A stretch of 64,000 nt of DNA from an uncultured Verrucomicrobiota bacterium (GCA_903831085.1 CAIKWE010000003.1:23468-87467), one strand, 5' to 3'. Positions 20,440 through 42,067 are shown, counted from the first letter of the stretch. Numbers and translations are program-made. Notes: generated from the letters alone by a model not told the origin.

Positions 20440-20457
20440 AGCATCCTCGACACCCGT

Positions 20458-21381: not shown

Positions 21382-21423
21382 AAGTACCGCTCCGTTCCGT
21401 ACGCTAAATCAAAACCATCCCGA

Positions 21424-24455: not shown

Positions 24456-24458
24456 AAA

Positions 24459-25769: not shown

Positions 25770-25773
25770 TTTG

Positions 25774-26784
25774 TCAGTTCCTTATTTCGTTGGGACACGG
25801 AGGAAGCCGACCGGCATCGACTCCGTGACTTTGGTCAATCACATACAAAGGCCTGTTTTGCACTTCGCGATAAACCCGGCCAAGATACTCGGCGACAACG
25901 CCGATGGAAATCAATTGGAAACCGCCCAGAAACAGAATGGCGGTCATCATACTGGCATAGCCCAGCACGTCTTTTCCAAACACCATGGTCCGAATGACGA
26001 GAGCGAGGGCTGCCAATATTGCCAGCATCGATATCCCCAAGCCGATGTAGGACCAGATGCGCAAGGGGCGGTTGGTGGTGGACAGGATAGCGTCTACGGC
26101 GTAATTCCAAAGGAAACCCCAGTTCGATTTGGATTTGCCTTTGATCCGTTCGGGGCGGTCGAACATGATGGCGGTGCTCTTGAATCCCGCCCACGCCGTC
26201 AGACTGCGGAGGAACCGTGATTTTTCCCGGATATGCCGGATCACTTCTACGATTTTGGCGTCAATCAGCCGGAAGTCCCCGGTGCGCTGCGGAATGCTGT
26301 TCTCGCTGACAACGTTGAACACCTTATAGAACAACGTGTTCAGGAATGTTTTGAATCCGCTGTCGATGCCGGAGCGGCAGCGGGTAGCGTACACCATATC
26401 GTAGCCTTCACGCCATTTGGCGACAAAATCCGCCATCATCGCCGGCGGATCCTGAAGATCCGGATCCATAAGAATCACGGCATCGCCTTTGGCATAATCA
26501 AGGCCTGCGGTAAGAGCCATCTCCTTGCCGAAATAACGGGAGAAACGAATGACTTTAATTTCCGGATGCCGCTGGCGCCACAACAGCAATTGTCCATACG
26601 TGTTGTCGGTGCTGGCATTATCCACACAGATCACCTCGAACGGCATGTTCAGTTTTTCCAGGTGAAGCATTAATTCCTCGAAAAACAGGTCGAGAATTTC
26701 GGTCTCGTTTAAAAACGGAACGATCACCGAAAGCAATTTATCCCCGGATGGATTGTTCATAGTTTGGTTAACTGTTTCAGTCAT
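25774..26784 (-). CDS. GtrB-like polyisoprenyl-phosphate glycosyltransferase
   Basis: FSRYFGKEMALTAG, MDPDLQDPP, TGDFRL, YREVQNRPLY, two C-terminal TM helices. Confidence 0.9.
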   Translation of the reverse strand: MTETVNQTMNNPSGDKLLSVIVPFLNETEILDLFFEELMLHLEKLNMPFEVICVDNASTDNTYGQLLLWRQRHPEIKVIRFSRYFGKEMALTAGLDYAKGDAVILMDPDLQDPPAMMADFVAKWREGYDMVYATRCRSGIDSGFKTFLNTLFYKVFNVVSENSIPQRTGDFRLIDAKIVEVIRHIREKSRFLRSLTAWAGFKSTAIMFDRPERIKGKSKSNWGFLWNYAVDAILSTTNRPLRIWSYIGLGISMLAILAALALVIRTMVFGKDVLGYASMMTAILFLGGFQLISIGVVAEYLGRVYREVQNRPLYVIDQSHGVDAGRLPPCPNEIRN

Positions 26785-26815
26785 TATCCGATTACTCCTG
26801 CCACTGCGCCCCTGC

Positions 26816-27589
26816 TCACGCCCACATTTTCCATGGGGCTTTGCCGCCGTCCCACAAATCCTGAAGAGTCGTTTTGTCGCGGAGCGTGTCGACCGGCTGC
26901 CAGAAGCCCTCGTGAAGATAAGTGGAAAGCTGCCCCTCAGATGTAAGCCGATTCAACGGTTCGCGTTCCCATACGGTTTGGTCGCCATCGATATAGTCCA
27001 GCACTTTGGGCGAGCAAACAAAAAATCCGCCATTAACCCAAGCGCGGTCACCGGCGGGCTTTTCCTCAAAATCCAATGCCTTGTTGTTGGCAATTCGCAA
27101 GGCACCAAAACGGCCAGGCGGACGAGTGGCCGTCAGAGTGGCCAGAGTCTTCTGCTTACGGTGAAACTCCAGAAGTTTCTTGATGTCCACATCGCCGACG
27201 CCGTCTCCGTAGGTAAGACAAAAATCTTCGCCTTCCACTAAGTACGGCTTAATTCTTTTGATTCGCCCGCCCGTCATGGTGTTTTCTCCGGTATCGACCA
27301 GCGTCACTGTCCACGGATCCGAGTAATTGTGGTGCACCTTGATCTCGTTATTGGCCAGATTGATGGTTACATCGGACATGTGCAGAAAATAGTTGGCGAA
27401 GAATTCCTTGATCATGTAGCCCTTGTGCCCGAGGCAGATGACAAAATCCGTAAGACCGAACGCGGAATAGATCTTCATCACGTGCCACAGAAGCGGCCGT
27501 CCGCCGACTTCGATCAGCGGCTTGGGCTTGATAGCCGTTTCCTCGCTGATCCGCGTGCCCAATCCACCTGCTAAAATCACCACTTTCAT
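26816..27589 (-). CDS. rfbF: Glucose-1-phosphate cytidylyltransferase
   Basis: ILAGGLGTRISEET..PKP, TMTGGRIKR, LTYGDG, GFWQPVDTLRDK. Confidence 0.95.
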   Translation of the reverse strand: MKVVILAGGLGTRISEETAIKPKPLIEVGGRPLLWHVMKIYSAFGLTDFVICLGHKGYMIKEFFANYFLHMSDVTINLANNEIKVHHNYSDPWTVTLVDTGENTMTGGRIKRIKPYLVEGEDFCLTYGDGVGDVDIKKLLEFHRKQKTLATLTATRPPGRFGALRIANNKALDFEEKPAGDRAWVNGGFFVCSPKVLDYIDGDQTVWEREPLNRLTSEGQLSTYLHEGFWQPVDTLRDKTTLQDLWDGGKAPWKMWA

Positions 27590-27778: not shown

Positions 27779-28354
27779 TTATATTCCGGGAAAGAGTTCG
27801 TTTTCCACCTGTTCACAGATGCAGTGATAGACTACCACTCCCACTTCTTGAATATGTGGCGTAAAGTTGGAGGGTATTTCGATCAGCACATCGGCCAGTT
27901 TCGCCAATGCACCTCCGCCGCAACCGGTCATGGCGATGGTTTTAACGCCCATAGTCTTCGCGGCTTTAAAGGCTTCCACTACGTTTTTGGAGTTGCCAGA
28001 CGTTGAGAAGCCGAAAGCAATATCGCCGAACGCTGCGTTAGCCTGCAATTGTCTGGAAAAAATCTGTTCATAGCCATAATCGTTGGCCAGGCAGGTTACC
28101 GTGGAGGCGTTGCAGACCAGCGCCTGAGCCTTGAGGGGCTTCCGCTCTTTAAGATAACGCCCATTCAGTTCGCCAGCCATGTGCTGCGCATCGGCCGCCG
28201 AGCCGCCGTTGCCAAAAAGGAACAGCCCGTGTTCTTCACGGTAGGCCGCAACAATCATACTGGCAGCACAGCTGATGGAACTCGCACTTTGCTCCAATGT
28301 CTTGCGCAAAAGCTGTTCGACTTCCTGAAAGCGTTTGGTAAGCAGTTCTTTCAT
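27779..28354 (-). CDS. gmhA: D-sedoheptulose-7-phosphate isomerase
   Basis: GNGGSAADAQH, NDYGYEQIFSRQ, STSGNS, IQE. Confidence 0.93.
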   Translation of the reverse strand: MKELLTKRFQEVEQLLRKTLEQSASSISCAASMIVAAYREEHGLFLFGNGGSAADAQHMAGELNGRYLKERKPLKAQALVCNASTVTCLANDYGYEQIFSRQLQANAAFGDIAFGFSTSGNSKNVVEAFKAAKTMGVKTIAMTGCGGGALAKLADVLIEIPSNFTPHIQEVGVVVYHCICEQVENELFPGI

Positions 28355-28386
28355 TACATACTCCTGTTCAACAGTTCATTACCTGC

Positions 28387-28902
28387 TCAAACCGGCAGAT
28401 CCAGCACCTCAATCAGTTCGGAAATCCGGCGCGTACATCGCGTTGACTCTGCCCCGCCTAACATTATCCGGTTCGGGATACCGGCAGTTTCGGCGGCGGC
28501 CATATCGGTATCCTTGTCACCAAGCATCCATGAATGCAACGGATCAATATCATATTCTCTAATGGCCTGCAGAAACATCCCCGGTGCGGGTTTCCGGCAG
28601 GAACATCTCTCCTCCGGAGCGTGCGGACAGCTGTATACAGCCGCAATTTCAACATCCTGCTCTGCAAACTTCTGTATCATCCATTCATTGAGCTTTCTGA
28701 AGTCCTCTTTGGTGTAATATCCCCGTCCAATCCCTGACTGGTTAGTCACCACGACCAGTTTATACCCCTTCTCCGCTAACTGTCTTAAGACCGGAAAAAC
28801 CGACTTGATGAACTCAAAATCCTCAATGCGGAATACATATCCGTGATCCACATTGATCACCCCGTCACGATCCAGAAAAAAAGCTTTTTGCCCGCCACTC
28901 AT
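28387..28902 (-). CDS. gmhB: D,D-heptose 1,7-bisphosphate phosphatase (HAD)
   Basis: Start reassigned to ATG 28902; FLDRDGVIN, VTNQSGIGRG, CPH..CSCRKP, GDKDTD. Confidence 0.92.
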   Translation of the reverse strand: MSGGQKAFFLDRDGVINVDHGYVFRIEDFEFIKSVFPVLRQLAEKGYKLVVVTNQSGIGRGYYTKEDFRKLNEWMIQKFAEQDVEIAAVYSCPHAPEERCSCRKPAPGMFLQAIREYDIDPLHSWMLGDKDTDMAAAETAGIPNRIMLGGAESTRCTRRISELIEVLDLPV

Positions 28903-29099
28903 ATATCTCTTCGTTCCCACATATCCTCGGCCCGACAGGTGAGCAGGCAAGGTATCAGACTGAAAAACCGATTCAAGTGCAATACACCGATTCACAGCCG
29001 GAAGCCACGGTTCAAAAAGGTAACACGAATTTTTAATTTCCGTAATCCGGGGTTCTCCGGTATGTTTAACGGGATTTTTTACGAAAGGATCTCCTGGAT

Positions 29100-30032
29100 A
29101 TGAATATTCTTATTACCGGCGGAGCCGGTTACATTGGTTCCATACTGACCCCACGCCTGCTGTCCCTGGGACACAAGGTTACCGTGATCGACAACTTCAT
29201 GTACGGGCAGACGTCTCTGCTCGATTGCTGCCATAACCCCGATCTGACCATCGTCCGTGGCGACATCCGTCATCCGGATTTTGTTAAAAAGCATCTGGCT
29301 AAAGCGGATGTCATCATTCCGCTGGCCTGTCTGGTTGGTGCTCCGGTCTGCAATCAGAAACCCATTGAGGCGCGCACCATCAATCTGGATGCCATTAAAA
29401 TGCTGGCCGACCTGAGCGGTAAGGGACAGATTCTTCTCTCCCCCACCACCAACAGCGGCTACGGCATCGGCGAAGAAGGCCTGTTCTGCACTGAGGAAAC
29501 GCCGCTCCGCCCCGTTTCGCTCTATGGCACGCTCAAAGTGGAACTGGAGGAATATCTGCTGGCCACCGGCCGCGCCGTTTCGCTCCGCCTTGCGACGGTC
29601 TGCGGCATCAGCCCGCGTATGCGCCTCGATCTGCTGGTCAACGACTTCACCTACCGCGCCGTGACCGACCGTTTCGTCATCCTGTTCGAAGCGCACTTCA
29701 AGAGGAACTACATCCATGTGCAGGATGTCGCCTCCGCCTTCATTCATGCGATAAAGAACTTCGATGCGATGAAAAATCAGGCCTACAACGTCGGCCTGAG
29801 CGAAGCCAATCTCTCGAAGATGGAGCTCTGTCTTGAAATTAAGAAGTTGGTTCCTGACTTCTGTATCATGGAATCGGAAATCGGCAAAGACCCCGACCAG
29901 CGCAACTACATCGTCAGCAACGATAAGATTGAAAAAACCGGCTTCAAGCCGCAGGTTTCAATCCAGCAGGCGATCAGCGAGTTGATCAAAGGCTATCAGG
30001 TGATCCGCCGCCACGACTTCACCAATCTCTAA
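29100..30032 (+). CDS. SDR dehydrogenase resembling Campylobacter Cj1427 (GDP-D-glycero-D-manno-heptose 4-dehydrogenase)
   Basis: GGAGYIGS, IIPLACLVGAP, TNSGYGIG, PRMRLDLLVNDF, RNYIHV, DPDQRNY motifs, which I recall from Cj1427; needs alignment. Confidence 0.75.
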   Translation: MNILITGGAGYIGSILTPRLLSLGHKVTVIDNFMYGQTSLLDCCHNPDLTIVRGDIRHPDFVKKHLAKADVIIPLACLVGAPVCNQKPIEARTINLDAIKMLADLSGKGQILLSPTTNSGYGIGEEGLFCTEETPLRPVSLYGTLKVELEEYLLATGRAVSLRLATVCGISPRMRLDLLVNDFTYRAVTDRFVILFEAHFKRNYIHVQDVASAFIHAIKNFDAMKNQAYNVGLSEANLSKMELCLEIKKLVPDFCIMESEIGKDPDQRNYIVSNDKIEKTGFKPQVSIQQAISELIKGYQVIRRHDFTNL

Positions 30033-30042
30033 CGGAGCAGAC

Positions 30043-30987
30043 ATGTTCAAGAGGATCCTCGTCACCGGCAGCACTGGCTTTCTCGGGCATCATTTCATGC
30101 CGCGACTGAAAGAAGCCTTTCCGAATGCCGAACTGATTGGACTTGGCCGCCGCGACTACGATCTACTCGAACCCGACGCGCCCTCTGCCATGCTGAAAAA
30201 GATCAAGCCCGACTGTGTCGTCCACATGGCCGCGAAGTCCGGCGGCATCATCACCAATAAAAAGAGGCCGGCCGATTTCTTCTATGAAAACCTGACGATG
30301 AACACCCACACGCTCCACGAATCGTGGAAGGCGGGTGTCAAAAAGTTCATCACCTTCATGGGAGGATGCTCCTATCCGTCAAACGCCCAATCGCCGATCG
30401 GCGAAGACCAGATGTGGAACGGCTACCCGCAGATTGAAAGCGCCGGTTACTCCGTCGCCAAGAAAATGCTCATCACCCAGTCGTGGGCCTATCGAGTTCA
30501 GCATAACTTCAACTCGATCGTGCTGATCCCCGGCAATGTTTACGGCGAATGGGATAATTTCAACCTCGAAGAGTCCCACGTTATTCCTGCACTGATTCGC
30601 AAATACATCGAGGCACAGGAGCGCAGCGACAAGACCATCACCGCTTTCGGCACCGGCCGCCCCACCCGCGATTTTGTCTACGCCGGCGACGTCGCCGCCA
30701 CCGTGCCGTGGTTCATCAAGAACTACAACTCCAGCGAGCCGGTCAACATTTCCGCTGGACGGCGCATCTCCATCCGCGAGCTGGCCGAAACCGTCAAAAA
30801 AGCCACTGGCTTTACTGGAGAAATCGTCTGGGACGCCACCAAGCCCGATGGTCAAATGGATAAAATTTTCTCTGTGTCGCGACTGAATGAGCTCGGTCTC
30901 TCCTGCAACACCACGCTCGAAGAAGGCCTGCGCCGCACCGCGCAATGGTTTCTCAAAGCCCGCAAAGAAGGAACTGTGCGCCTGTAG
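30043..30987 (+). CDS. GDP-L-fucose synthase-like epimerase/reductase
   Basis: HMAAKSGG, CSYP, GYSVAKK, PGNVYGEWDNF, HVIPALI, DGQ. Confidence 0.85.
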   Translation: MFKRILVTGSTGFLGHHFMPRLKEAFPNAELIGLGRRDYDLLEPDAPSAMLKKIKPDCVVHMAAKSGGIITNKKRPADFFYENLTMNTHTLHESWKAGVKKFITFMGGCSYPSNAQSPIGEDQMWNGYPQIESAGYSVAKKMLITQSWAYRVQHNFNSIVLIPGNVYGEWDNFNLEESHVIPALIRKYIEAQERSDKTITAFGTGRPTRDFVYAGDVAATVPWFIKNYNSSEPVNISAGRRISIRELAETVKKATGFTGEIVWDATKPDGQMDKIFSVSRLNELGLSCNTTLEEGLRRTAQWFLKARKEGTVRL

Positions 30988-31049
30988 GGTTGATTATACA
31001 GGGCGTAACCGGATATAAGAACGCCCGAAGGAAATAAGGTAAAATAGAA

Positions 31050-32036
31050 ATGATCATCGCACGCACCCCTTTTAGAATCAGTTTTTTCGGTGGCGGCACC
31101 GACTTCCCCGCTTTCTTCCAGCAGCACGGCGGCACGGTTCTTGGCAGTACCATCAACAAATACTGTTACATTTCCGTGCATCACCTGACTGCCTTCTCCA
31201 AACACCGTTTTCGTGCCAGCTACTCGCGCACCGAATCGGTTCTCAAGCCGGAAGAATTTCAGCATCCACTGATCCGCGAAACGCTCCTGTTGCTCAACCA
31301 GCAGGAAGGCGTTGAAATCTCGCATGTCGCTGACTTGCCCGGACAGACCGGACTCGGCTCTTCCTCGGCGTTCACTGTCGGACTGCTCAACGCGCTCTAC
31401 GCCTTCCGCGGACAACGCATCACCCCCGAAGAGCTGGCGCGGCAGGCGATCCACATTGAACGTGACCGCGTCGGCGATGCCGGTGGCTGGCAGGATCAGT
31501 ACGAAGCGGCCTACGGCGGGTTCCGCCGCATCAATTTCCGCAAAGGACAGCCGGTGCAGGTGCTGAGTATCGGCGTCACCGCCGACCGCCTGCAGGAACT
31601 CGAAAACAATCTGCTTCTTTTCTATATGGGCACCGAAAGCTCCGCCGAAAAAATCCTGCAGGATCAGAAAAAACGAGCCGGCGAAAATGAAAAAGCGTTG
31701 CTCACCATGATGCAAATGGTGGATCACGCCGAACGCATCCTCGCCGATGGCGGCCCGCTCGCTGGATTCGGCGACCTGCTCGACGAATCCTGGCGGCTCA
31801 AACGTTCCCTTGCCGATGGCGTCAGTAACCCGCAGATTGACCAGGCCTACGAGGCCGCTCGCGCCGCCGGAGCGCGCGGTGGCAAACTGCTCGGCGCAGG
31901 CGGACGCGGGTTCATCTGCCTTTACGTCGAACCGGAAAAACAGGCCGCCGTGCGTGAAATGCTCAAAGGTCTCAACGAGGTCCGTTTCGGTTTCAGCGCC
32001 GAAGGCAGCCGCATTATTTTCCAAGCATTGGAATAA
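31050..32036 (+). CDS. hddA: D-glycero-D-manno-heptose-7-phosphate kinase (GHMP)
   Basis: RTPFRISFFGGGTD, GLGSSS, GGWQDQY, GGKLLGAGGRG. Confidence 0.85.
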   Translation: MIIARTPFRISFFGGGTDFPAFFQQHGGTVLGSTINKYCYISVHHLTAFSKHRFRASYSRTESVLKPEEFQHPLIRETLLLLNQQEGVEISHVADLPGQTGLGSSSAFTVGLLNALYAFRGQRITPEELARQAIHIERDRVGDAGGWQDQYEAAYGGFRRINFRKGQPVQVLSIGVTADRLQELENNLLLFYMGTESSAEKILQDQKKRAGENEKALLTMMQMVDHAERILADGGPLAGFGDLLDESWRLKRSLADGVSNPQIDQAYEAARAAGARGGKLLGAGGRGFICLYVEPEKQAAVREMLKGLNEVRFGFSAEGSRIIFQALE

Positions 32037-32041
32037 CTTCT

Positions 32042-33136
32042 ATGAAATCAAATCGCGAAATCCCTTGGTTTATTCCTGTTCTCGATGACGCCGACAGCGA
32101 GGCTGTTCGGCAGACAGTCGTATCCGGCTTCGTCAATGAGGGCCCTGAAAACCGGGCCTTTGAGCGCGAGTTGCAGTCTTACTTTGACGTTCCGTACGCC
32201 GTCACCATGCCCAGCTGTACAACGTCCATTGCGCTGGCGCTCAAGGCGCTCGGTGTCGGTCACGGCGATACTGTGCTGGTACCAACGGTCACCTTTATCG
32301 GCACAGCCAGCGCTGTCCGCCTGACCGGTGCCGAGCCGATTCTTGTTGATGTTGATCCGGTGTCTTTCAACATGGATCCGGCCGATGCCGCCCGCCGTGT
32401 GCAAAAGAATACCAAGGCCATTGTGCCGGTACACCTGAACGGACGCCCTGCGGCATTACCGGCTTTGCGAAAAATCGCCCTGAAACATAATCTGGCCATT
32501 GTGGAAGATACCGCCGAGGGGCTGGCTTCAAAAAGCGGTGAAGGCTGGCTGGGCACCCTCTCGGATGCCGGCTGTTTTTCGCTCGCACCAACTAAAATCA
32601 TCACCAGCGGACAAGGCGGCTTTGTTCTGACCCGCCGCGAAGACGTTCGCGACAATCTGATCCGGCTCCGCGATCACGGACGGCTGTCGCGCAGCAGTGA
32701 TGTTCATCCCGTTACCGGATTTAATTTTAAGGTCACCGATATGCAGGCGGCGCTGGCCCGATCGCAATTTAAAAAACTGCCGGGCCGCATCGAACGCTCC
32801 CGCGAAATTGACCGGCGTTATCTGGATGGATTGAGCGACCTTCCGGAAATGATCTTCACGCCCCGTCCGGAGGACGGTGGATATTTGATGTGGCCGGATT
32901 TTAAGAGTAAACAGCGCGACGCACTGGTGGAGTCACTCAAGGCTCAAGGGATCACTCTTCGTCCCTTCTGGCCGGCGTTGCATAACCAGCCGGCCTACGC
33001 TTCATCGTCGGCATATCCCGGCGCAGACGAAGCAAGCCGCGAGGGTTGCTGGCTACCCTGTTCGCCGAACATTACGGATGAAGAACTCGACCGGGTCATT
33101 GACGCTATTCGTAAATTTTTCAAGGGAAATAAATAA
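32042..33136 (+). CDS. DegT/DnrJ/EryC1/StrS PLP-dependent sugar aminotransferase
   Basis: PVHLNG, IVEDTAE, FSLAPTKIITSGQGG (PLP lysine present), GFNFK. Confidence 0.9.
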   Translation: MKSNREIPWFIPVLDDADSEAVRQTVVSGFVNEGPENRAFERELQSYFDVPYAVTMPSCTTSIALALKALGVGHGDTVLVPTVTFIGTASAVRLTGAEPILVDVDPVSFNMDPADAARRVQKNTKAIVPVHLNGRPAALPALRKIALKHNLAIVEDTAEGLASKSGEGWLGTLSDAGCFSLAPTKIITSGQGGFVLTRREDVRDNLIRLRDHGRLSRSSDVHPVTGFNFKVTDMQAALARSQFKKLPGRIERSREIDRRYLDGLSDLPEMIFTPRPEDGGYLMWPDFKSKQRDALVESLKAQGITLRPFWPALHNQPAYASSSAYPGADEASREGCWLPCSPNITDEELDRVIDAIRKFFKGNK

Positions 33137-34380
33137 TGCCGGAATCTCTGCAACCCGCTCAGCGCCGCAAACGGATCGCCGTTTTTTCACGTTACCAACT
33201 GGCCGAGCAGTATGACCTGGCCGCCGAGTTCAAAGGGATGCTGACCGCTCTGGCAGAGAACAACGATGTGCTCCATCTGAGCTTTCGCAACACCCGCCTG
33301 CCTGCCGGAGGAGTCCCCGCCGGAGTGGAACTGGCGGAAATTCCTCTGACTGTTGACCGCCGTTGCGCCCGCGACATCACCGTCAAATCCATGCTGATGT
33401 TTCTCTACCTGCCGCTGGCCGCGTGGAAAATGCGCCGCTTCAAACCGGATGCCATTTTTGTTTCTGAAATTCTCCCGCTGTGCGGCCTGTTTTTTAAACT
33501 GTTCTGCAACACACATGTGGCCACCGCCTACGGCGACTGGCATGTTCATAATTTTCTGGGACGAAAAGTATGGAGCCGCCCGTTTGTCAAACTGGCGGAA
33601 GTACTGGAACGGCTTGAAATCCGCTGTCTGGACGGCTTCTTCTGCCGGGCCGACGCCGCAGGTAAAAGACTAATCACCTGCGGTGCCCGCGAAGAACAGA
33701 TTCGTGTCGTCAATGACGCTCCCGATCTGTCCGCCTTCTTTCCTCAGGATCAAAGTGACTTGCGCCATCGCAACGGTTTTTCCGATGAAGATGTGGTGCT
33801 GCTCTACCATGGAGTTATGCATCAAGGCAAAGGCCTCGACCGCCTGCTGGAATGGACGGCTGATCTATACCGCGAAGATCCCCGCATTGGCATCTTTCTG
33901 GTCGGTGCCGGTGCTGAATTGAAAGCGCTTCAGGAACAGGCCGTGCGACTCGGTCTCGGCTCGCGGGCCGTCTTTACCGGCTGGCTTAAAACTGTCCACG
34001 AAGTCGGGCAGTTCTGCAACGCCGCCGACATTTGCATCGCCATGCGCACCGGTGCCGAGTCAAATGTTCATATCATTCCCGGAGCCCTGCTCCATTCCAT
34101 GGCCTGCCGCAAAACAGTCATCGGCCCCGACCTGCCGGGAATCCTTGAAGTCATCCGCGACGGCGAAAACGGTTTTGTGTTCAAAGCCGACGACGGCAAT
34201 TCCTTCAAAGCACTGATCCGCAGGCTGGCCGCAGATCCGGTTCTGCGCAACCGGACGGCCGTGCAGGCTGAGCTGGATATTCTGGATCGATTCTCGGTTC
34301 CCGCCACCGCAAAGAAATATGCCGCAGCCATTGAACATTACGCGGCGCTGCCGCGAAAAAAAGAAAGGGCCAGATCATGA
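33136..34380 (+). CDS. GT4 family glycosyltransferase
   Basis: YHGVMHQGKG, D-x-CIA, EVIRDGENGF. Confidence 0.85.
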   Translation: MPESLQPAQRRKRIAVFSRYQLAEQYDLAAEFKGMLTALAENNDVLHLSFRNTRLPAGGVPAGVELAEIPLTVDRRCARDITVKSMLMFLYLPLAAWKMRRFKPDAIFVSEILPLCGLFFKLFCNTHVATAYGDWHVHNFLGRKVWSRPFVKLAEVLERLEIRCLDGFFCRADAAGKRLITCGAREEQIRVVNDAPDLSAFFPQDQSDLRHRNGFSDEDVVLLYHGVMHQGKGLDRLLEWTADLYREDPRIGIFLVGAGAELKALQEQAVRLGLGSRAVFTGWLKTVHEVGQFCNAADICIAMRTGAESNVHIIPGALLHSMACRKTVIGPDLPGILEVIRDGENGFVFKADDGNSFKALIRRLAADPVLRNRTAVQAELDILDRFSVPATAKKYAAAIEHYAALPRKKERARS

Positions 34381-34955
34381 CCGGCAACAACATATTCTTC
34401 GACCTCGCAGAGCTTAAAAGCCTTGGCCACGACAGCATCGTCGGACGCACCGTCCGTATCCGCAAACCGAAACTTTGCTCTGTCGGCCATCACACTATTC
34501 TGGACGACTTCACCTATGTCTCCTGCGGCATAACTGTCGGGGACTACACGCATATCGGTGCCAACGGCGTGTTGATCGGCGGCGAGGCACACATCACCAT
34601 CGGCCATTTTGTAAACATCGCCCCCGGTTGCCGCCTGATCGCCGCCTCCAACGACTTCAGCGGCGGCGGATTGGTCGGCCCGACCATCCCGCCCGAATTT
34701 GCGGCGCGTTCCATCATCAGCAAAATCACGCTGGAAGATCATGCTTTGCTGGGAACCAACACGGTCATTCTCCCCGGCGTCCATGTACCGGAAGGGGTTT
34801 CTACCGGAGCCATGACGTTGCTGACCGCCGATATGAAACTTGAGCCGTGGACGCTGTATGTCGGAAGCCCGGCGCGTCCGCTGCGCAAACGGGATTCATC
34901 ACAAATACTGGCAACCGCCGCCCGTCTGCGGGCCGCAGAAAAATCCAAAGGATAA
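34377..34955 (+). CDS. Hexapeptide-repeat acyltransferase
   Basis: Left-handed beta-helix repeats (SVGHHT, TVGDYT, TIGHFV), PWTLYVGSPAR. Confidence 0.8.
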   Translation: MTGNNIFFDLAELKSLGHDSIVGRTVRIRKPKLCSVGHHTILDDFTYVSCGITVGDYTHIGANGVLIGGEAHITIGHFVNIAPGCRLIAASNDFSGGGLVGPTIPPEFAARSIISKITLEDHALLGTNTVILPGVHVPEGVSTGAMTLLTADMKLEPWTLYVGSPARPLRKRDSSQILATAARLRAAEKSKG

Positions 34956-34960
34956 AAAAC

Positions 34961-35722
34961 ATGCAGCTACATCTGTTTCACTTCACTCCGCATGGGCTTG
35001 CCAGAGCTTACAGTCATCTCGTGGCTGGAAAAAAACTTTGCCGTGCGGCAGGACTTAAACTCAGACCCTTGATTCCCGATTCCGTAAACAGCATGACCGC
35101 CGCATGGAACGTGTACCAGACCTTCGAAAAGTCCGGACTGCCCCGTCCCAGAACCATCATCGATGTGGGGGCAAATGTCAGCCAGATGACCCGCCTGTTA
35201 CTTGGAACAGCACCTGACGCCAGGGTGCTGTCCTTTGAGCCGAATCAGAAACTTCTTCCGGCCGGAGAGGTCCACCGGGTTGCTCTTTCCGATACGGACG
35301 GAACAACGGATTTTTTCATCCCGCAGAATGATTCTGACTGGGGAACTATCGAATCAGGCAAGGTTAACATTACTTCGAATACAGCCCGGTATTCCGTCCC
35401 GACCCGACGCATGGAATCGCTGATTGAAAATGGCGAAATCGAATGGACGGGGGATGGGCAACCGATTTTTGTAAAAATTGATACTGAGGGCAGCGAAAAA
35501 AAGGTCATTGATGGATTTGGCAAATACCTTGGCGATGTCTCGTACCTGCTGGTCGAAGTGGAGAATCAGGAAGCACGGGGCCAAAACTACAATCTGATTT
35601 CGTTGTGTACCGCATTGGCTGAAAAAGGATTCGACTGCGCAAAAATAGTCTATTCCTGCTACGACGGTCCTGAAGCACCCGCATACAGCGACATTCTCTT
35701 CTGGCGAAGCAACAAATCCTAG
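34961..35722 (+). CDS. FkbM family methyltransferase
   Basis: Start reassigned to ATG 34961; IIDVGANV, SFEPN, VKIDTEGSE. Confidence 0.85.
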   Translation: MQLHLFHFTPHGLARAYSHLVAGKKLCRAAGLKLRPLIPDSVNSMTAAWNVYQTFEKSGLPRPRTIIDVGANVSQMTRLLLGTAPDARVLSFEPNQKLLPAGEVHRVALSDTDGTTDFFIPQNDSDWGTIESGKVNITSNTARYSVPTRRMESLIENGEIEWTGDGQPIFVKIDTEGSEKKVIDGFGKYLGDVSYLLVEVENQEARGQNYNLISLCTALAEKGFDCAKIVYSCYDGPEAPAYSDILFWRSNKS

Positions 35723-35738
35723 ACTTCAAGAAACAAAA

Positions 35739-36455
35739 ATGGGTAATGCTGAAACCAAATCGATGGCTGTCATTCTGCTCGGCGGAAAAGGAACCCGGAT
35801 TCAGTCGCTCTACGGCGACCGTCCGAAATGTCTGGTGCCTGTTGCCGGCAAACCGATTCTGCTCTGGCAGCTCGAATGGTTGCGGCGCGGCGGTATCAAA
35901 CGCGTCCACCTCGCCGCCGGCTACATGGCTGATGTTCTGCGCGACTGGCTCAAAACCGACGCACCAAAAGACATGGAGATCACCTTTTCCGTCGAACCCG
36001 AACCGCGCGGCACCGGCGGCGCGATTAAATTCGCCGTGCCGTGGATTCAGAGTGACCCCTTTTTCGTTTTGAACGGTGACAGCCTTACGCCCGGCCTCGA
36101 TTTCCACACCTTGGAAAAGGTGCACCGCAATTCTTCCGATGTCTGGATAACGCTCGGTGTCGCGCAGATCGAAAAGACCGGACGTTACGGAACCGTTGAG
36201 TTTGACGAGCAGAACCGCGTCACCGCGTTCCTCGAAAAATCCGAACGTGAACACGGCTGGATCAACACCGGCGTTTACTGCATCAGCCGCCGCGCACTGG
36301 AAGCGATTGCGCCGGATAAAAACATCTCGATTGAAACCGATGTTTTCCCGTCGCTGGCTTCCGCCGGCCGCCTCCGCGTCTTCCGCGCCGCGCCGCCCCT
36401 GCTCGACATGGGCACCCCCGACGGCCTTGCGGCGATGGAAAAATTTCTGAGCTGA
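35739..36455 (+). CDS. hddC: Heptose-1-phosphate guanylyltransferase-like nucleotidyltransferase
   Basis: LLGGKGTR..PK, EPEPRGTGGA, NGDS, INTGVY, DMGTPD; context with gmhA/gmhB/hddA. Confidence 0.75.
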   Translation: MGNAETKSMAVILLGGKGTRIQSLYGDRPKCLVPVAGKPILLWQLEWLRRGGIKRVHLAAGYMADVLRDWLKTDAPKDMEITFSVEPEPRGTGGAIKFAVPWIQSDPFFVLNGDSLTPGLDFHTLEKVHRNSSDVWITLGVAQIEKTGRYGTVEFDEQNRVTAFLEKSEREHGWINTGVYCISRRALEAIAPDKNISIETDVFPSLASAGRLRVFRAAPPLLDMGTPDGLAAMEKFLS

Positions 36456-36461
36456 CCGGCC

Positions 36462-37475
36462 CTATTTATTTTCGCTGAGGTCGCGATTCGGGCGGAAAAA
36501 TTCAAACCATTCGGCGAGGCCGTAGCTCAGGTGCATGATGGGAATCATAAAGAAGACCAGCAGGTCACGCGCCCGACGGGTCTGTACAGCCGTTTCCAGA
36601 GCAACCGCCGCCGCCATTAGCGCATAAAGCCCGAGATCCAGCTTGAGCAGAAAAGCGTAAAGGTTACAGACCAGCGCGGCAGGCACCAGCACAACGAGCG
36701 AGAAAACCCAGACCGCAGGAATCAGCGTGGTCCATTCGAAATCAGTGCCGGCGCGTTTCAGGCGAATGCGCGTGGCGCCGTAGCCCCACATCTGCCGGCA
36801 GAAGCGTTTCACCGACTGCCTCGGATAGTGATAAACCCATGCGGACGGAATGAAGAGCAGTTTATGTCCGAGCTGCTGGGTGCGCCATGCGGCAATCATC
36901 TCTTCGCCCGGATAAAATTCCGGCGGGAATCCGCCCATCTGTTGAAAGACGGTTTTGCGATAGGCGGCATTACAACCGATAATCCGACTCCAGGTTATTT
37001 CCCGTACAGCGGTGTTCCCAATCCGGTAACGCTCCGCCACATAACCGGCGGCACGCGAGGTCAGTGCCAGACCAGCCAGCCGTGCCGATAAATTAATATC
37101 CTCCGGCACAAGACTCGGGCCGCTGACCAGACCGACCGCAGGATTTTCAAATGCTTTTAAAATATGTTCCGGCCAGTCAGGAGCGATCACCACATCGTCG
37201 TCCAGAAACGCGACAATGTCCGCGCGACTTTCCTCCGCGCCGCGGTTTTTCTTACGGCTGGAGTCGCCGTCCGGATACGAAATGGCAATATGGCGCACGT
37301 TCGGATTGGCCGAAACGATCGCCGTAACTTTCCGCAGTACGTCGCTGTCGCGGATTTCGCCGACAACGATCACTTCCATCTGATCCGCGCCTTTCGTTGC
37401 CAGAACAGACTCCAATGTGCGCACCAGAATCGGGCGGCCCATGGTTGGAATAACGATAGAAAGATTCGGGTTCAT
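36462..37475 (-). CDS. GT2 glycosyltransferase with C-terminal TM helices
   Basis: Start reassigned to ATG 37475 (ATGA overlap with the upstream gene); FLDDDV, GCNAAYR, PGEE, VYHYPR. Confidence 0.85.
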   Translation of the reverse strand: MNPNLSIVIPTMGRPILVRTLESVLATKGADQMEVIVVGEIRDSDVLRKVTAIVSANPNVRHIAISYPDGDSSRKKNRGAEESRADIVAFLDDDVVIAPDWPEHILKAFENPAVGLVSGPSLVPEDINLSARLAGLALTSRAAGYVAERYRIGNTAVREITWSRIIGCNAAYRKTVFQQMGGFPPEFYPGEEMIAAWRTQQLGHKLLFIPSAWVYHYPRQSVKRFCRQMWGYGATRIRLKRAGTDFEWTTLIPAVWVFSLVVLVPAALVCNLYAFLLKLDLGLYALMAAAVALETAVQTRRARDLLVFFMIPIMHLSYGLAEWFEFFRPNRDLSENK

Positions 37476-39880
37476 ACGGTTTTCTTTTTCTTCGGCAGAA
37501 TAACGCAAACAACAGCGGCCGCACAAACCGCCATGCCGCCAAACTGGAGCCAGAGAGTTTGATGCGGAGCGGTGATTTTCAGTTCGACTTCGTGTGTACC
37601 GGCAGGAACATAGACCGCCTGGAAAAGATAATCGGCGCGCAGAACAACGCCAGGTTTCCCGTCTACTACCACCCGCCAGCCGGGATCGAATTTATCGGCG
37701 ATGCGCAACAGCGCGGCCTGCTCCGACTGTGTGCGCAACTGAACGTGTCCGGTTTTGTAACCAAGCACTTCCACCGTTCCGGTGATACCCTGCCCTGAGG
37801 ACGCAGGCACGTCGGCATCCGGCGCAAGCAGGACGCTTCCAAACATCGGAACTTTCGTATCGGCAAGTTCGGCCAGCGCCTGCTGGTCCGTCATTTTTTT
37901 CCATCCGGCGATCAGCGCAAAACGCGGCGCGGGCTGGCGGTCACGCAAAATGATGTGCTGGCCCCGCGGGGCGGCAGAAACGAGAATGTCTCCTTCAGGC
38001 GTGCCGCTGACGTTATAGGAAAAAACCGGCTCATACTCACCGGCGGGAAGCTGCGCAGCAACCTGTGCTGGGCCCATCAGATGAGTGACGCCCGCCAGCC
38101 GCCACATACGCAACGGATTTCTCCCGAACGCACTGAGAAACCGGCTGTACTCTTCGGGCATGCGCGGCATCTGGGTGATGTTGAAAGCACGAATGTCATG
38201 ATATGGAAAGAGGTAGGTAAGCCAGTTGTTATAAAAGCTCTCCTGAGTAATCAGTGCGACACGCTGCACGCCGAGCTGCTGTTTTAACAAGCGGGTAACG
38301 TCGTTTTCAGCAATTAAACTTTCGGGAAGCGGTTGAATATAGTGGCGCGACAGCAACGCGGCGTCACCAGCGACCAGAAGAACCGCGACAGCAGTAAGCG
38401 CAGGTTTCCAATGGTTGGAACCGGCGAGGCCGGATTTTAGTTTTTTTCCAATCATTGGAAACCCAGCGAATAGCGCGGTGGTCGCGGCGGCCATAGCCGC
38501 CGCATACCACAAGGCCTGAACCTGATTGGAGGCGATCACCTGAGCCATTTGCGCCGGCCAGCCCTGAGTCATGAGTCCGGACACGGCTTCGCCCCGGCCA
38601 AAGGAGGCGCTCAGCGCCCCCAGCAGAACAACTCCCGCAACGCCCGTAGCAACCCACAAAAATTTATTGCGCGGGTTCTTTTCTTCACGATTGAACAGTT
38701 CCTGCGCGCCGAATGCGGCGAGCACGGCGACGGCCAGCTGAAAGACCTGCAGAAATTTATTCGGATTGCGGATATTGTTGATGACGGGCAGATGGTAGAG
38801 CGCACCATAAAGCGGAAAATATTTCCCGAAGGCGAGCAGTAGCGTCACTCCGGCGGCGCAACCCCAGAACACCGTGTCGGCGCGCCCCTCGCGGCGGCTG
38901 ACACCGCGGACAACAGCGAAAAGCGCGAACATCAGCGGAAGGATGCCGAGATACGTGTTCTCCAGTTTAAAATTCATGAAGCCTTGCCGGGTGGATTCCC
39001 AGCCGGCGCTGCGGCCCATTCGTCCCCAGTACGGGCCGGCGGGCTCGCCACTGCGCCAGCCGGTGTAGCCTGGAGCGATAAAATCAATACTCTCTTCCGG
39101 CGGCCAGCTCCACTGGGTGGCGAACTCCCATTTGGCCTGCGGATTTTCCGCCGACTGCGAGGCGATTCCCTGCACGGCGCTGCGGTAGCCGCTGAGCAGT
39201 GAGTGTGAAGCGACCAGTAAGGCAACGACAAAAGCAGGCGCGGCGAATTTGAGCATGAATTTCAAAAAGGCTTTTTTGTCTTCGCGCCAGAGAGCGAAAA
39301 GCAGATATGGACCGAGCATCAGCGCCATGAAAAGCGCACTGTCCTGCTGTTCGGTGAACATCGCGCCGAGCGCACCGCCCGTCAGCACAGCCCACGGAAT
39401 CCGGCGGGTTTGCGCAGTCTTTTCGATGCAATAAAGCGCGGCGGAAGCAAAAAGAACCACGCCGAATTTTCCAATATGCCCGGCATAGGTGAGCGTGAAG
39501 TTGCTTCCGACCCAGAAGGCCGTCAGCGCGCCAAGCAGGCAGGCGGGCAGTCCGCAACGGCGAAGCCGCAGGAATCCGGCCAGCAGTAGCGAACTGAGAA
39601 TCAGGTCGATCGCATGCATCCAGTTGGTGAAGAAGCGTAACGGCTGGAACCAGAGGTTGAGGTTCGTCCAACTGAGATTCAAAGAATCAGGAAACCCGGC
39701 CAGCGCACTGTCATACCAGCCGCCAAAGAAAACAGACGGGATGCCGGAGGCGCGGGCGGCGAGGTGGCCGATGTTGTCGTCGGTGGTAAAGAGAACCCCG
39801 CCAGTCAGGCAGCAGCGGAAAATAATCAGAGCGAAGATCAAAAAGAACAGCGCGGCGGAAATTTGCGGATGTTTTTTCAT
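37472..39880 (-). CDS. YfhO-family (GT-C) membrane protein
   Basis: Start reassigned to ATG 39880; LFTTDD first loop, AGHIGK, RNPNKF, C-terminal GWRV.VDGK..ADYLFQAV.VPAG.HEV typical of YfhO. Confidence 0.8.
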   Translation of the reverse strand: MKKHPQISAALFFLIFALIIFRCCLTGGVLFTTDDNIGHLAARASGIPSVFFGGWYDSALAGFPDSLNLSWTNLNLWFQPLRFFTNWMHAIDLILSSLLLAGFLRLRRCGLPACLLGALTAFWVGSNFTLTYAGHIGKFGVVLFASAALYCIEKTAQTRRIPWAVLTGGALGAMFTEQQDSALFMALMLGPYLLFALWREDKKAFLKFMLKFAAPAFVVALLVASHSLLSGYRSAVQGIASQSAENPQAKWEFATQWSWPPEESIDFIAPGYTGWRSGEPAGPYWGRMGRSAGWESTRQGFMNFKLENTYLGILPLMFALFAVVRGVSRREGRADTVFWGCAAGVTLLLAFGKYFPLYGALYHLPVINNIRNPNKFLQVFQLAVAVLAAFGAQELFNREEKNPRNKFLWVATGVAGVVLLGALSASFGRGEAVSGLMTQGWPAQMAQVIASNQVQALWYAAAMAAATTALFAGFPMIGKKLKSGLAGSNHWKPALTAVAVLLVAGDAALLSRHYIQPLPESLIAENDVTRLLKQQLGVQRVALITQESFYNNWLTYLFPYHDIRAFNITQMPRMPEEYSRFLSAFGRNPLRMWRLAGVTHLMGPAQVAAQLPAGEYEPVFSYNVSGTPEGDILVSAAPRGQHIILRDRQPAPRFALIAGWKKMTDQQALAELADTKVPMFGSVLLAPDADVPASSGQGITGTVEVLGYKTGHVQLRTQSEQAALLRIADKFDPGWRVVVDGKPGVVLRADYLFQAVYVPAGTHEVELKITAPHQTLWLQFGGMAVCAAAVVCVILPKKKKTV

Positions 39881-39970
39881 GCTTTTTCCAATGAGGTGGT
39901 TCTGGATTAATTTAGAGGAAGAGAGTAAATCAGAGAACCAACTGGTAAGCATTAAAAAAGGAATGGATTC

Positions 39971-42067
39971 ATGCACTTACGCTCTGCTTCGATTTATGCC
40001 GCGTTTTCCCTGCTTGTGCTGACGGGCTGCTCTGACGGGCCGAAGGGTGAAACGGTTCCGTATGAAACACTCGTGAAGCGGCTCGCCGATCCAGCGCAAA
40101 TGTCCAGTCTGGATACGCCGGGCGCAAAAATCGCCACTTCGTACGACCGGAGCGGCAGCAATAATGACTACGGAAACTTTCTGAAAAAAGGGCCGGACGG
40201 CTGGATGGTGCTGGCGGACTTAAAGGGTCCCGGCTACGTCTCACGCACCTGGTTTACCGGATCCAAGGATGGCTCGAAAAAAATCCGTCTCTATTTTGAC
40301 GGCGAAAAGTCGCCCTCCATCGAAATCACGCTGGACGAATGGTGCGGAAAAAAAGAGCCTCTTACTCTGCCGCTGGCAGGCTACGAACCTTACTGCTGGT
40401 ATTCATGGCTTCCGGTTCCTTTCAAAAAGCGTCTAATCATCATGGAGCAGGCTCCGGTTCGGGATGAAAAGCTCTACTACCAGATCGCTTATAACGCCCT
40501 GCCTGCCGGTCAGACGGTGGAAAGCTTTAAGCTCCCGTTGAGCGCAACGGCCATAGCGGCGATCGCCGAAGTAAAGACCCGCTGGAACGAACGTGGACCG
40601 GCGCAACCTGGGCCGGGAAAACAAAATCGCCTCGAACTACAGGGGCCGGGCCTCATTCAGGAACTTCAATTCACTCCGGACTGGTCCAGCCTTCCGTCTC
40701 CCGCCGCGATTGAAAAGGCCTTACAGGAGACGATCGTTCGCATTTACTGGGATGGAAACACCTCACCCAGCGTAGAAGCGCCGCTCGGCGCGCTGTGCGG
40801 CAGTATGTGGAGCCGCATGCGCTACCAGAGTCTCTATTTTGGCATGACCAATGAAACTCTCAGTCTGCGTTTCCCGATGCCATTCAAGTCATTGGCGGTT
40901 GTTAAAATTGACGGGCCGGCGCCCGTTAACATCGCGGCTGTTACCGGGAAGCCGCAGCTGGCGCAAGGATACCTGCACAGCGGATGGAAAAAAAGCACGG
41001 CACAGGCCGTCGGCAGTCCGCACACGATTTTACAAACGTCCGGCTCCGGCAAATACGTTGGCTGCATCCTTGGCGTACGCAGTCTGGATCAAAGCTGGTG
41101 GGTCCTTGAGGGCGACGAACTGACCGCCGTGGACGGCGAAACAACGCCGGGCTGGAAAGGAACAGGTCTGGAGGATTATTTCAACGGCGGCTGGTATTAC
41201 GGCAACGCGCTGGCCGCGCCGCTAAACGGCGTTGTTTTCAAGGCGCCGTTCCGTATTGTGCAGTACCGGATTCATCAGGCCGACCCGGTCGCCTTCACCA
41301 ATTCGTTCAACATGATTTTTGAACGCGGCCCGGACCACGCCAGCCACGCCGCTTTTGAAAGCGTCTCCTTCTATTATCTGGATCGGCCGCAGAAAGCGGA
41401 TTCCGACATTGGGAAACAGCCTCTCCATCCGGAACCCGACCCGCTCAGCAAACTGACCCTGATGACCGAGATTAACGACAGGGAACGTCTGGGTGATTAC
41501 ACCGCGGCGCAGGACACGATTAAAATGTATCTGGAAGAGTTCAAGGATGCGCCATTCGCCCCGCAGCTTTTCCAGAGACTGGAAAACTACCGTAACGGCG
41601 AAACGATTCCTGAAGGGCAAGCCCTGCTCGGCGTCTATGCCAATATGTCCGCCACGGTTTTTCTGGACGGCACAGTCATTGGCCGGTTCGGCGACCCGCA
41701 GGCTATGCAGTTTAAAACTGTAAACCTCGCCCCGGGCAAACACGTTCTGGCTGTTCAAACCGCTCGGCAGAATTACCCCGACTGGCTACAGGTAGGGCTG
41801 AAATACGGAAACAAGATCGTCGGCACCGACGGCACGTGGAAGTTTTCGTTTAATCAGGGTTCCGATTGGAATACGGCAAACTTCGACGACTCATCGTGGG
41901 AAACTTTGAGCTGCTGGGTGAAAGGTCCGCCGGAAGAGCCGTACATTTTCTGCAAGCCGAACGAACACGTCGGCATGCAATCGGTTCCGTGGGGAATCCG
42001 TCCGGCGAAAGACTGGCCGGCGAACGCCCGGCAGGTTTTCTACCGGAAGGTGTTTACGGTCGAATAA
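39971..42067 (+). CDS. DUF2961 (GH172-like) lipoprotein
   Basis: Lipobox LTGC; SYDRSGSNND, GPGYVSRTW, YFDGE..PSI, WEGDE-like LEGDE, GTGLEDYFNGGW, YRIH..DPV.F motifs. Confidence 0.8.
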   Translation: MHLRSASIYAAFSLLVLTGCSDGPKGETVPYETLVKRLADPAQMSSLDTPGAKIATSYDRSGSNNDYGNFLKKGPDGWMVLADLKGPGYVSRTWFTGSKDGSKKIRLYFDGEKSPSIEITLDEWCGKKEPLTLPLAGYEPYCWYSWLPVPFKKRLIIMEQAPVRDEKLYYQIAYNALPAGQTVESFKLPLSATAIAAIAEVKTRWNERGPAQPGPGKQNRLELQGPGLIQELQFTPDWSSLPSPAAIEKALQETIVRIYWDGNTSPSVEAPLGALCGSMWSRMRYQSLYFGMTNETLSLRFPMPFKSLAVVKIDGPAPVNIAAVTGKPQLAQGYLHSGWKKSTAQAVGSPHTILQTSGSGKYVGCILGVRSLDQSWWVLEGDELTAVDGETTPGWKGTGLEDYFNGGWYYGNALAAPLNGVVFKAPFRIVQYRIHQADPVAFTNSFNMIFERGPDHASHAAFESVSFYYLDRPQKADSDIGKQPLHPEPDPLSKLTLMTEINDRERLGDYTAAQDTIKMYLEEFKDAPFAPQLFQRLENYRNGETIPEGQALLGVYANMSATVFLDGTVIGRFGDPQAMQFKTVNLAPGKHVLAVQTARQNYPDWLQVGLKYGNKIVGTDGTWKFSFNQGSDWNTANFDDSSWETLSCWVKGPPEEPYIFCKPNEHVGMQSVPWGIRPAKDWPANARQVFYRKVFTVE

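Follow-up and report, generated by a model that had tools for sequence, protein, structure and literature searches.

A candidate operon for a 4-acylamido-4-deoxy-heptose in a Kiritimatiellales genome and its relatives across the Kiritimatiellia

Tailoring of GDP-heptose is described for the HS:2 capsule of Campylobacter jejuni, where GmhA, HddA, GmhB and HddC provide the sugar nucleotide, which is altered by the C4-dehydrogenase Cj1427, the cupin 3,5-epimerase Cj1430 and the C4-reductase Cj1428; the 14 GDP-heptoses described for this species have hydroxyl or deoxy ends, and none is an amino sugar (PMC10680097). The L-heptosamine of septacidin and spicamycin is formed by the FAD oxidase SepI, the C5 epimerase SepJ, the VOC C3 epimerase SepA and the aminotransferase SepG (PMC9978623). 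Here, a gene cluster (positions 27779-36455) is analyzed in a DNA stretch of 64,000 nucleotides (GCA_903831085.1, CAIKWE010000003.1:23468-87467), in the following called the window, which belongs to a Kiritimatiellales metagenome-assembled genome (MAG; 2.14 Mb, 60 contigs, 94.6% complete). We put at about 0.5 the probability that the plus-strand operon of this cluster, together with the divergent gmhB-gmhA pair, builds a 4-acylamido-4-deoxy-heptose and transfers it to an envelope glycan.

To our knowledge, all products of GDP-heptose tailoring in Campylobacter, Yersinia and Burkholderia are hydroxyl or deoxy sugars, and the only amino-heptoses described are those of nucleoside antibiotics from actinomycetes, where unrelated enzymes make them. 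Likewise, we know of no characterized envelope glycan from the Kiritimatiellia, which are widespread anaerobic polysaccharide degraders. A literature search for GDP-derived or envelope amino-heptoses and for the lipopolysaccharide (LPS) of Kiritimatiellota brought up only the septacidin pathway; this is weak evidence, as the literature was covered in part.

All ten genes which an earlier note on this DNA had listed are real open reading frames (ORFs) at the positions it named, and Pfam and NCBIfam profile matches place each of them in the family it was assigned to. The genes from 29100 to 36455 form a tight operon on the plus strand with intergenic gaps of -4 to 62 bases, in which the ORFs of the DegT protein and the GT4 glycosyltransferase overlap by 1 base and those of the GT4 and the acyltransferase by 4 bases. 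The gmhB-gmhA pair (27779-28995) lies on the minus strand and is divergent from this operon. SDR stands for short-chain dehydrogenase/reductase and PLP for pyridoxal phosphate.

27779..28354, minus strand: gmhA, predicted sedoheptulose-7-phosphate isomerase (191 amino acids); SIS_2 domain, phosphoheptose isomerase models of NCBIfam at E 7e-54 and 1e-52
28387..28995, minus strand: gmhB, predicted heptose 1,7-bisphosphate 7-phosphatase of the HAD-IIIA type (ORF of 202 amino acids from a GTG); models NF006506 and TIGR00213
29100..30032, plus strand: Cj1427-like SDR; match to PDB 6VO6/6VO8
30043..30987, plus strand: Fcl-like SDR, here FclL (314 amino acids), proposed C3/C5 epimerase of the 4-keto-heptose; match to GDP-fucose synthase
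31050..32036, plus strand: HddA-like GHMP kinase (328 amino acids), putative heptose-7-phosphate 1-kinase; match to heptose kinase structures
32042..33136, plus strand: DegT-family PLP aminotransferase (364 amino acids), proposed GDP-4-keto-heptose 4-aminotransferase; PF01041
33136..34380, plus strand: GT4 glycosyltransferase (414 amino acids), proposed transferase of the finished sugar; Glycos_transf_1 and Glyco_trans_1_4
34377..34955, plus strand: left-handed beta-helix (hexapeptide) N-acyltransferase (192 amino acids), proposed to acylate the 4-amino group; PF00132, match to AntD
34958..35722 (ORF open from 34847), plus strand: FkbM-family methyltransferase, accessory; TIGR01444
35739..36455, plus strand: HddC-like protein, putative heptose-1-phosphate guanylyltransferase (238 amino acids); match to the Yersinia HddC structure

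The true start of gmhB is probably a Met codon near 28902 and not the GTG of the mechanical ORF call, and the FkbM gene likely starts at 34958, straight after the stop codon of the acyltransferase gene.

With the HS:2 system, the locus shares the genes for GDP-heptose supply, a C4-dehydrogenase with 56% identity to the Campylobacter enzyme, and the logic of oxidizing C4, epimerizing the sugar and then finishing C4. It differs in that the window has no cupin and that an Fcl-like SDR with a glycine at position 107 apparently takes the role of the epimerase. The finish at C4 differs as well, since the window offers a PLP aminotransferase and an N-acyltransferase where Campylobacter has a reductase. 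The route to GDP-perosamine and N-acetylperosamine (Gmd, Per/RfbE and PerB) likewise comprises a GDP-4-keto sugar, amination by a DegT protein and N-acylation by a hexapeptide-repeat enzyme. In the window, however, the keto group would arise by C4 dehydrogenation of a heptose and not by 4,6-dehydration of mannose, so that C6 would be hydroxylated and C7 present; moreover, an epimerase-like step is probably inserted, and the acyltransferase is nearest to AntD and not to PerB. The septacidin pathway has the same order of steps on a heptose (4-oxidation, C5/C3 epimerization, 4-transamination), but it starts from an ADP-heptose-derived L-glycero-D-manno-heptose on a nucleoside and leads to a secondary metabolite (PMC9978623). 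It uses an FAD oxidase together with TIM-barrel and VOC epimerases, whereas a GDP-sugar, SDR-fold enzymes and an envelope glycan are proposed for the window. The locus was not found to be of the septacidin type: HldE is missing from the genome, the oxidation enzyme is an SDR, and such epimerase families are absent among the cassette genes.

Proposed oxidation, amination and acylation at C4

The SDR encoded at 29100-30032 appears to be a close homologue of the GDP-heptose C4-dehydrogenase Cj1427. It matches PDB entries 6VO6/6VO8 over 308 residues without gaps (E 2.6e-119, 401 bits, 56% identity), and we take 6VO6 to be Cj1427 (Huddleston et al. 2020). Cj1427 is a GDP-heptose C4-dehydrogenase with tightly bound NADH, which is recycled by alpha-ketoglutarate (PMC10680097).

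Judged from its sequence, the DegT-family protein is a true aminotransferase. It scores 312 bits against PF01041 (cut-off 19.8) and carries the PLP lysine (Lys185 in APTKIITSG), not the histidine of the ColD/E1 dehydratases. Together with the far lower scores against ColD and E1 (75-107 bits), this lysine ruled out a 3-dehydratase of the ColD/E1 type. The top PDB match is GDP-perosamine synthase (3BN1, 177 bits); no equivalog model of NCBIfam matched.

For the hexapeptide protein, AntD was the top PDB match by a wide margin (3VBI-3VBP, E 8e-32), followed by QdtC (E 9e-10), and the O-acetyltransferase models of NCBIfam matched weakly (≤42 bits). AntD of Bacillus cereus is the dTDP-4-amino-4,6-dideoxyglucose N-acyltransferase of anthrose formation and uses 3-hydroxy-3-methylbutyryl-CoA as acyl donor; acylation of a C4 amine would thus be common to both proteins, with a different nucleotide and a different sugar. 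PDB entry 3VBN is AntD, an enzyme that acylates a nucleotide sugar at its C4 amine (PMC6031040). Structures 8VR2-8VR7 (SDR, DegT and acetyltransferase) gave weak matches to three of the cassette proteins.

In a locus of the same genus with an 89% identical DegT protein (L006), the places of the hexapeptide transferase and the GT4 are taken by an ATP-grasp enzyme and another GT4. Enzymes of the ATP-grasp type join a carboxylate to an amine by an amide bond. Downstream of the same DegT, there would therefore be two unrelated chemistries for the acylation of an amine, which supports a free amine. This third form of the cassette (L006:8205-16319) also has a methyltransferase gene inserted after the Fcl-like gene and a radical SAM/SPASM gene after the nucleotidyltransferase gene.

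Close homologues of DegT (57-97% identity) were found in about 100 clusters, all of them from Kiritimatiellia-type MAGs. Seven genes form a core of fixed order, namely those for the Cj1427-like protein, the Fcl-like protein, the kinase, DegT, the GT4, the hexapeptide transferase and the nucleotidyltransferase. This order is kept at 12 or more further loci of Kiritimatiellia with differing neighbors, and the DegT orthologue lies within the core wherever the flanking DNA is long enough. Because the same order recurs in so many loci, the layout is not a product of chance, and the differing surroundings indicate that the core is a mobile, self-contained unit. A sulfate transporter gene and pyruvate dehydrogenase genes flank it at one locus (L001), and the flanks of two others (L002 and L003) include glucose-6-phosphate isomerase. 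Where housekeeping genes are the only neighbors, the Cj1427-like enzyme would be the only possible source of a keto sugar for DegT.

Co-occurrence was counted in 201 genomes of the class Kiritimatiellia, which were searched with each of the four proteins listed below. The cassette with DegT is patchy, as it occurs in about 10 of these genomes (~5%) and in 2 of the 11 genomes of the same genus; a core function conserved throughout the Kiritimatiellia was thereby ruled out. With the Fcl-like query, close homologues were far more numerous than with the DegT query, and their contexts revealed a sister cassette with the order Cj1427-like gene, Fcl-like gene, SDR265, kinase, GT4 and nucleotidyltransferase, without DegT and acyltransferase. 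SDR265 is a small SDR whose gene is usually directly downstream of the Fcl-like gene. Matches were present as follows:

Cj1427-like protein: 93/201 genomes
Fcl-like orthologue: 71/201 genomes and one distant match
SDR265: 66/201 genomes
DegT orthologue: 10/201 genomes
Partner of the Fcl-like gene in the 71 genomes: SDR265 only, 63; DegT only, 8; both, 0; neither, 0

Exceptions to the pairing are few and occur in fragmentary assemblies. The Cj1427-like gene accompanies the Fcl-like gene in 71/71 genomes; it was found in 8/9 genomes with DegT and in 0/16 genomes without DegT, and in adequately complete genomes no DegT orthologue occurs without it. Since SDR265 and DegT exclude each other, DegT with the acyltransferase on the one hand and the reductase-like SDR on the other are alternatives for one functional slot. 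In the simplest reading, the upstream enzymes would leave a keto group at C4, which either DegT or SDR265 finishes. Of the two versions of this heptose cassette, the amino version of the window is the rarer one, and the sister cassette (63/201 genomes, about one third), which is common in Kiritimatiellia, probably makes an L-heptose.

Examples of the sister cassette are L059:9001-13806, L061:6957-13640 and L062:8064-15737; the Cj1427-like gene is non-adjacent in L059/L060. In L061:7941-9022, the Cj1427-like and the Fcl-like gene are separated by two ORFs (182 and 178 amino acids) to which no NCBIfam model matched. Another 22 of the 201 genomes (e.g. G004, G015, G026, G031 and G032) have a Cj1427-like gene and no Fcl-like orthologue, which suggests further combinations of heptose tailoring.

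Across the two cassette types, the kinases (62-71%), the Fcl-like proteins (76-87%) and the Cj1427-like proteins (75-87%) remain similar in identity, whereas the GT4 proteins share 55-65% among the amino-type cassettes and only 28-32% with the GT4 of the reductase type. The GT4 follows the tailoring type, which fits its proposed role as transferase of the finished sugar. The FkbM protein (63 bits against TIGR01444, cut-off 37.7) has a counterpart among the relatives only in L006 and is probably an optional add-on for O-methylation.

The earlier note had proposed a GDP-4-amino(acylamido)-4-deoxy-heptose for this locus. This proposal gains support from the Cj1427 homologue, the PLP lysine of DegT, the co-occurrence of DegT and the Cj1427-like gene, the exchange of DegT and SDR265, the relationship of the acyltransferase to AntD and the ATP-grasp enzyme of L006. 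As part of the same inference, it had named an epimerized, O-methylated heptose as a further or alternative product; the computational results agree with this as well, with the restriction that FkbM is optional and absent from most relatives.

Predicted supply of heptose and proposed role of the Fcl-like protein

All four families for the supply of GDP-heptose are present in 27779-36455 (GmhA-type SIS isomerase, GHMP kinase, HAD-IIIA phosphatase and NTP transferase). GmhB scores above the curated NCBIfam cut-offs (NF006506, 193.5 bits, cut-off 178; TIGR00213, 188 bits, cut-off 149.6). A tblastn search of the window's own genome gave one copy each of gmhA and gmhB, both in the window, and neither HldE domain I nor a GT9 heptosyltransferase was found in this genome. 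As the HldE kinase domain and GT9 are both missing, the ADP-heptose route to an LPS core is absent, and a use of gmhA and gmhB for such a core was ruled out for this genome. Their products can therefore feed only the GDP-heptose route, with the adjoining HddA/HddC-like pair as the sole visible user. In the relatives, gmhA is present in 7/8 well-assembled cassette-bearing genomes; gmhA and gmhB adjoin the core only in the window and in its nearest relative (L005).

FclL belongs to the family of the GDP-fucose synthases (206 bits in the PDB search), and its score against the Fcl model NF047922 of NCBIfam is 268.6 bits, under the cut-off of 500 bits. An alignment to human GDP-fucose synthase showed that GxxGxxG, Cys109, Tyr136, Lys140 and His179 are kept; the numbering of FclL equals that of E. 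coli GMER. From the GMER literature, we take Ser107-Tyr136-Lys140 to be the SDR catalytic triad and Cys109/His179 to be the epimerization pair. The triad is incomplete in FclL, as Gly107 replaces the serine. The motif 'GGCSYP' with this glycine is invariant in the 17/17 orthologues inspected, which come from both cassette types, and the two ordinary Fcl paralogues of the same genome (contig C60) have 'SSCIYP' with Ser107. In comparison to E. coli and human GMER (Fcl), FclL thus has the same fold, Rossmann motif and positions of Cys109/His179, Tyr136 and Lys140; it differs in Gly107, in the low score against the Fcl model, in the proposed substrate, a 6-hydroxylated heptose, and in a separate C4-finishing partner which is always present. 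A literature search for data on GMER mutants gave nothing relevant.

With about even odds, FclL would act as a C3/C5 epimerase that leaves the C4 ketone in place and not as the finishing reductase, because a C4-finishing partner is always present and a cupin epimerase is not. The earlier note had seen no cupin 3,5-epimerase, and this was borne out: the window contains no RmlC-type cupin, and the two cupins of the genome lie in other clusters (contigs C55 and C60). If FclL is a 3,5-epimerase, the absence of a cupin is explained. The designation 'Fcl-like reductase' given in the earlier note was correct with respect to the family. A role as finishing reductase is less likely than one as epimerase, since the catalytic serine is missing and the protein is always partnered.

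Distant homologues of DegT (45-47% identity; L057 and L058) again adjoin an Fcl-like protein and an acetyltransferase. In these Fcl-like proteins (L057:11111-12052 and L058:11149-12069), Ser107 and Cys109 are kept, and YxxxK, the Rossmann glycine motif and His179 are missing. Without YxxxK and the Rossmann motif, a function as reductase is ruled out for them, which favors the epimerase reading of FclL as well, and they may represent a degenerate, non-redox family derived from Fcl that is paired with aminotransferases and acetyltransferases.

A different division of labor, which we regard as rather unlikely but by no means negligible, would yield two products. FclL would then be a complete 3,5-epimerase/4-reductase which forms a GDP-L-heptose, e.g. 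D-glycero-beta-L-galacto-heptose, and DegT would aminate the un-epimerized ketone to a D-manno 4-amino-heptose ('hepto-perosamine'), which is then acylated. The retention of GxxGxxG, Tyr136, Lys140, Cys109 and His179 agrees with this, as does the fact that FclL is nearer to the bifunctional Fcl (206 bits) than to the reductase-only enzymes of Campylobacter (142 bits). Moreover, the top solved relative of DegT, GDP-perosamine synthase, uses an un-epimerized D-sugar, and a second glycosyltransferase (GT2, 36462-37526) often adjoins the cassette. However, a self-sufficient FclL would leave unexplained why its partner is strictly either SDR265 or DegT, the cassettes of L001 and L002 have one glycosyltransferase only, and Gly107 is invariant where ordinary Fcl proteins have serine. 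With two products an amino-heptose would still be made, in another configuration, and FclL would stand outside its pathway.

More tentatively than the formation of an acylamido-heptose as such, a specific version of the epimerase reading can be put forward. The 'GGCSYP' Fcl-like proteins would form a novel class of 3,5-epimerases with an SDR fold and bound NADP but without ketoreduction, which pass a GDP-4-keto-heptose of L configuration to a small reductase or to an aminotransferase. The product of the window would possibly be GDP-4-acylamido-4-deoxy-D-glycero-beta-L-heptose, and a cycle of glutamate and alpha-ketoglutarate would leave glutamate as the net need. We consider this version possible and somewhat doubtful in its entirety.

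The steps of the proposed pathway were deduced from homology and comparative genomics. GDP-heptose would be the starting sugar, provided by the gmhA, gmhB, HddA-like and HddC-like genes, as homology and genome content suggest. The Cj1427-type SDR would oxidize C4 to give GDP-4-keto-heptose, as is expected from its 56% identity to a characterized enzyme, and FclL would epimerize C3 and/or C5 and leave the reduction unfinished, for which comparative genomics argues. DegT would convert the 4-keto to a 4-amino group with glutamate as donor, and the alpha-ketoglutarate released in this step could recycle the NADH of the Cj1427-type enzyme, a presumed coupling. The AntD-like hexapeptide transferase would N-acylate the amine, with acetyl as the default guess for the acyl group, and the co-translated GT4 would move the sugar onto an envelope glycan. 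In the window genome, FkbM would add a methyl group, either on the sugar nucleotide or on the glycan.

Points against the pathway and other possible substrates

Several observations speak against the formation of an acylamido-heptose by this route. GmhA is under the equivalog cut-offs of NCBIfam (182.6 vs. 276 and 178 vs. 209 bits), HddA, the top NCBIfam model of the kinase, reaches 135 bits with a cut-off of 600, and the HddC model reaches 134 bits with a cut-off of 300; GmhA and the HddA- and HddC-like proteins would be members of their families too divergent for the curated models. The gene gmhA is also present in 8/16 related genomes without the cassette and fails as a discriminator for it. 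DegT scores 159-176 bits against inositol-, dTDP- and UDP-sugar aminotransferases, barely under the 177 bits for GDP-perosamine synthase, and the nucleotide and the position it attacks are read from the context only. SDR265, a protein of 265-270 residues with GxxGxxG and YxxxK, is weakly RmlD-like (24 bits), and its role as 4-ketoreductase is a prediction. The exclusivity of SDR265 and DegT gave p = 9e-11 in Fisher's exact test, a value uncorrected for phylogeny and shared ancestry. Finally, FclL may still be capable of reduction, as Tyr136 and Lys140 are retained and its Rossmann motif of the NADP type is intact; these features could serve either reduction or the stabilization of an enolate.

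The low scores of the supply proteins bear on the question whether the kinase and the nucleotidyltransferase activate mannose or a similar sugar, with a 4-acylamido-4-deoxy-hexose as product. Both the HddA and the HddC model score under their cut-offs, the model for mannose-1-phosphate guanylyltransferase scores slightly higher on the nucleotidyltransferase (155 bits, likewise under its cut-off) than that for HddC, and gmhA and gmhB are away from the cassette in most relatives. Nevertheless, a hexose as substrate is very improbable, as the top solved relatives of the kinase are all heptose-phosphate kinases (3K85, Burkholderia WcbL 4USK/4UT4 and C. jejuni 4N3O; E 6e-42 to 2e-32), that of the nucleotidyltransferase is Yersinia HddC (5XHW/6JQ8, E 2e-37), and the dehydrogenase shares 56% identity with an enzyme specific for heptose. 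In addition, no other use in the genome is possible for the adjoining gmhA and gmhB, and gmhA accompanies the cassette in nearly all well-assembled genomes (7/8).

It would also be conceivable that no amino-heptose is made at all. The heptose branch would then end in a reduced, epimerized and possibly O-methylated sugar, and DegT and the acyltransferase would use an unrelated nucleotide sugar, e.g. a UDP- or CDP-4-keto-hexose. The sequence of DegT by itself is silent on nucleotide specificity, and candidates for such a sugar could come from a CDP-glucose deoxysugar pathway directly upstream or from the other glycan cluster on contig C60. We regard this as improbable, since DegT lies within the cassette at every locus, even where no other sugar genes are nearby, does not occur without the Cj1427-like gene in adequately complete genomes, and replaces SDR265 one-for-one; moreover, the upstream CDP pathway is missing from most cassette-bearing loci.

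Neighboring genes and meaning for the Kiritimatiellia

Three further genes follow the operon:

36462..37526, minus strand: membrane-type GT2, frequent companion of the cassette; Glyco_tranf_2_3, Glyco_trans_2_3 and GT21
37472..39976, minus strand: YfhO-like GT-C-type membrane protein (834 amino acids), frequent companion of the cassette; weak YfhO match
39971..42067, plus strand: GH172/DUF2961 protein (698 amino acids); PF11175, E 2e-54

Orthologues of the GT2 (52-95% identity) adjoin the cassette in L003, L005, L007, L010, L011, L012 and L061, and those of the YfhO-like protein in L005, L006, L011, L061 and L062. The GH172/DUF2961 gene adjoins both types of cassette (L002, L003, L005, L007, L010, L011, L012 and L059/L060); characterized GH172 enzymes act on alpha-D-furanosides. 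An Arn-like lipid A system, with DegT as ArnB, the GT2 as ArnC and the GT-C protein as ArnT, was considered and found unsupported, as the adjoining GT2 is not ArnC-like and no deacylase was seen.

On the minus strand, gmhA is directly followed by the genes of a separate CDP-glucose pathway (window 19372-27589, minus strand). They encode RfbF (440 bits), RfbG (453 bits), a TylC3-like C-methyltransferase, an SDR, GtrB/PgfS-like GT2 proteins and a PMT_2/GT-C protein, and in L005 and L011 part of the pathway is likewise kept beside the cassette. Genome contig C60 carries another large glycan cluster (C60:27600-74400), in which two canonical Fcl proteins (SSCIYP) and three homologues of DegT are encoded together with an RmlC-type cupin and a nucleotidyltransferase.

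If the proposed pathway is true, it would be the source of the first GDP-linked heptosamine and of the first heptosamine in a cell envelope, and an amino-heptose made by a GDP route would add a new monosaccharide to the envelope repertoire of bacteria. It would also supply enzymes for the synthesis of GDP-amino-heptoses, as Cj1427-type enzymes are already in preparative use. The natural swap of reductase and aminotransferase provides an experimental handle on the question whether a protein such as the Fcl-like SDR can be a pure epimerase. For the Kiritimatiellia themselves, the cassette would give a first concrete hint on their surface chemistry.

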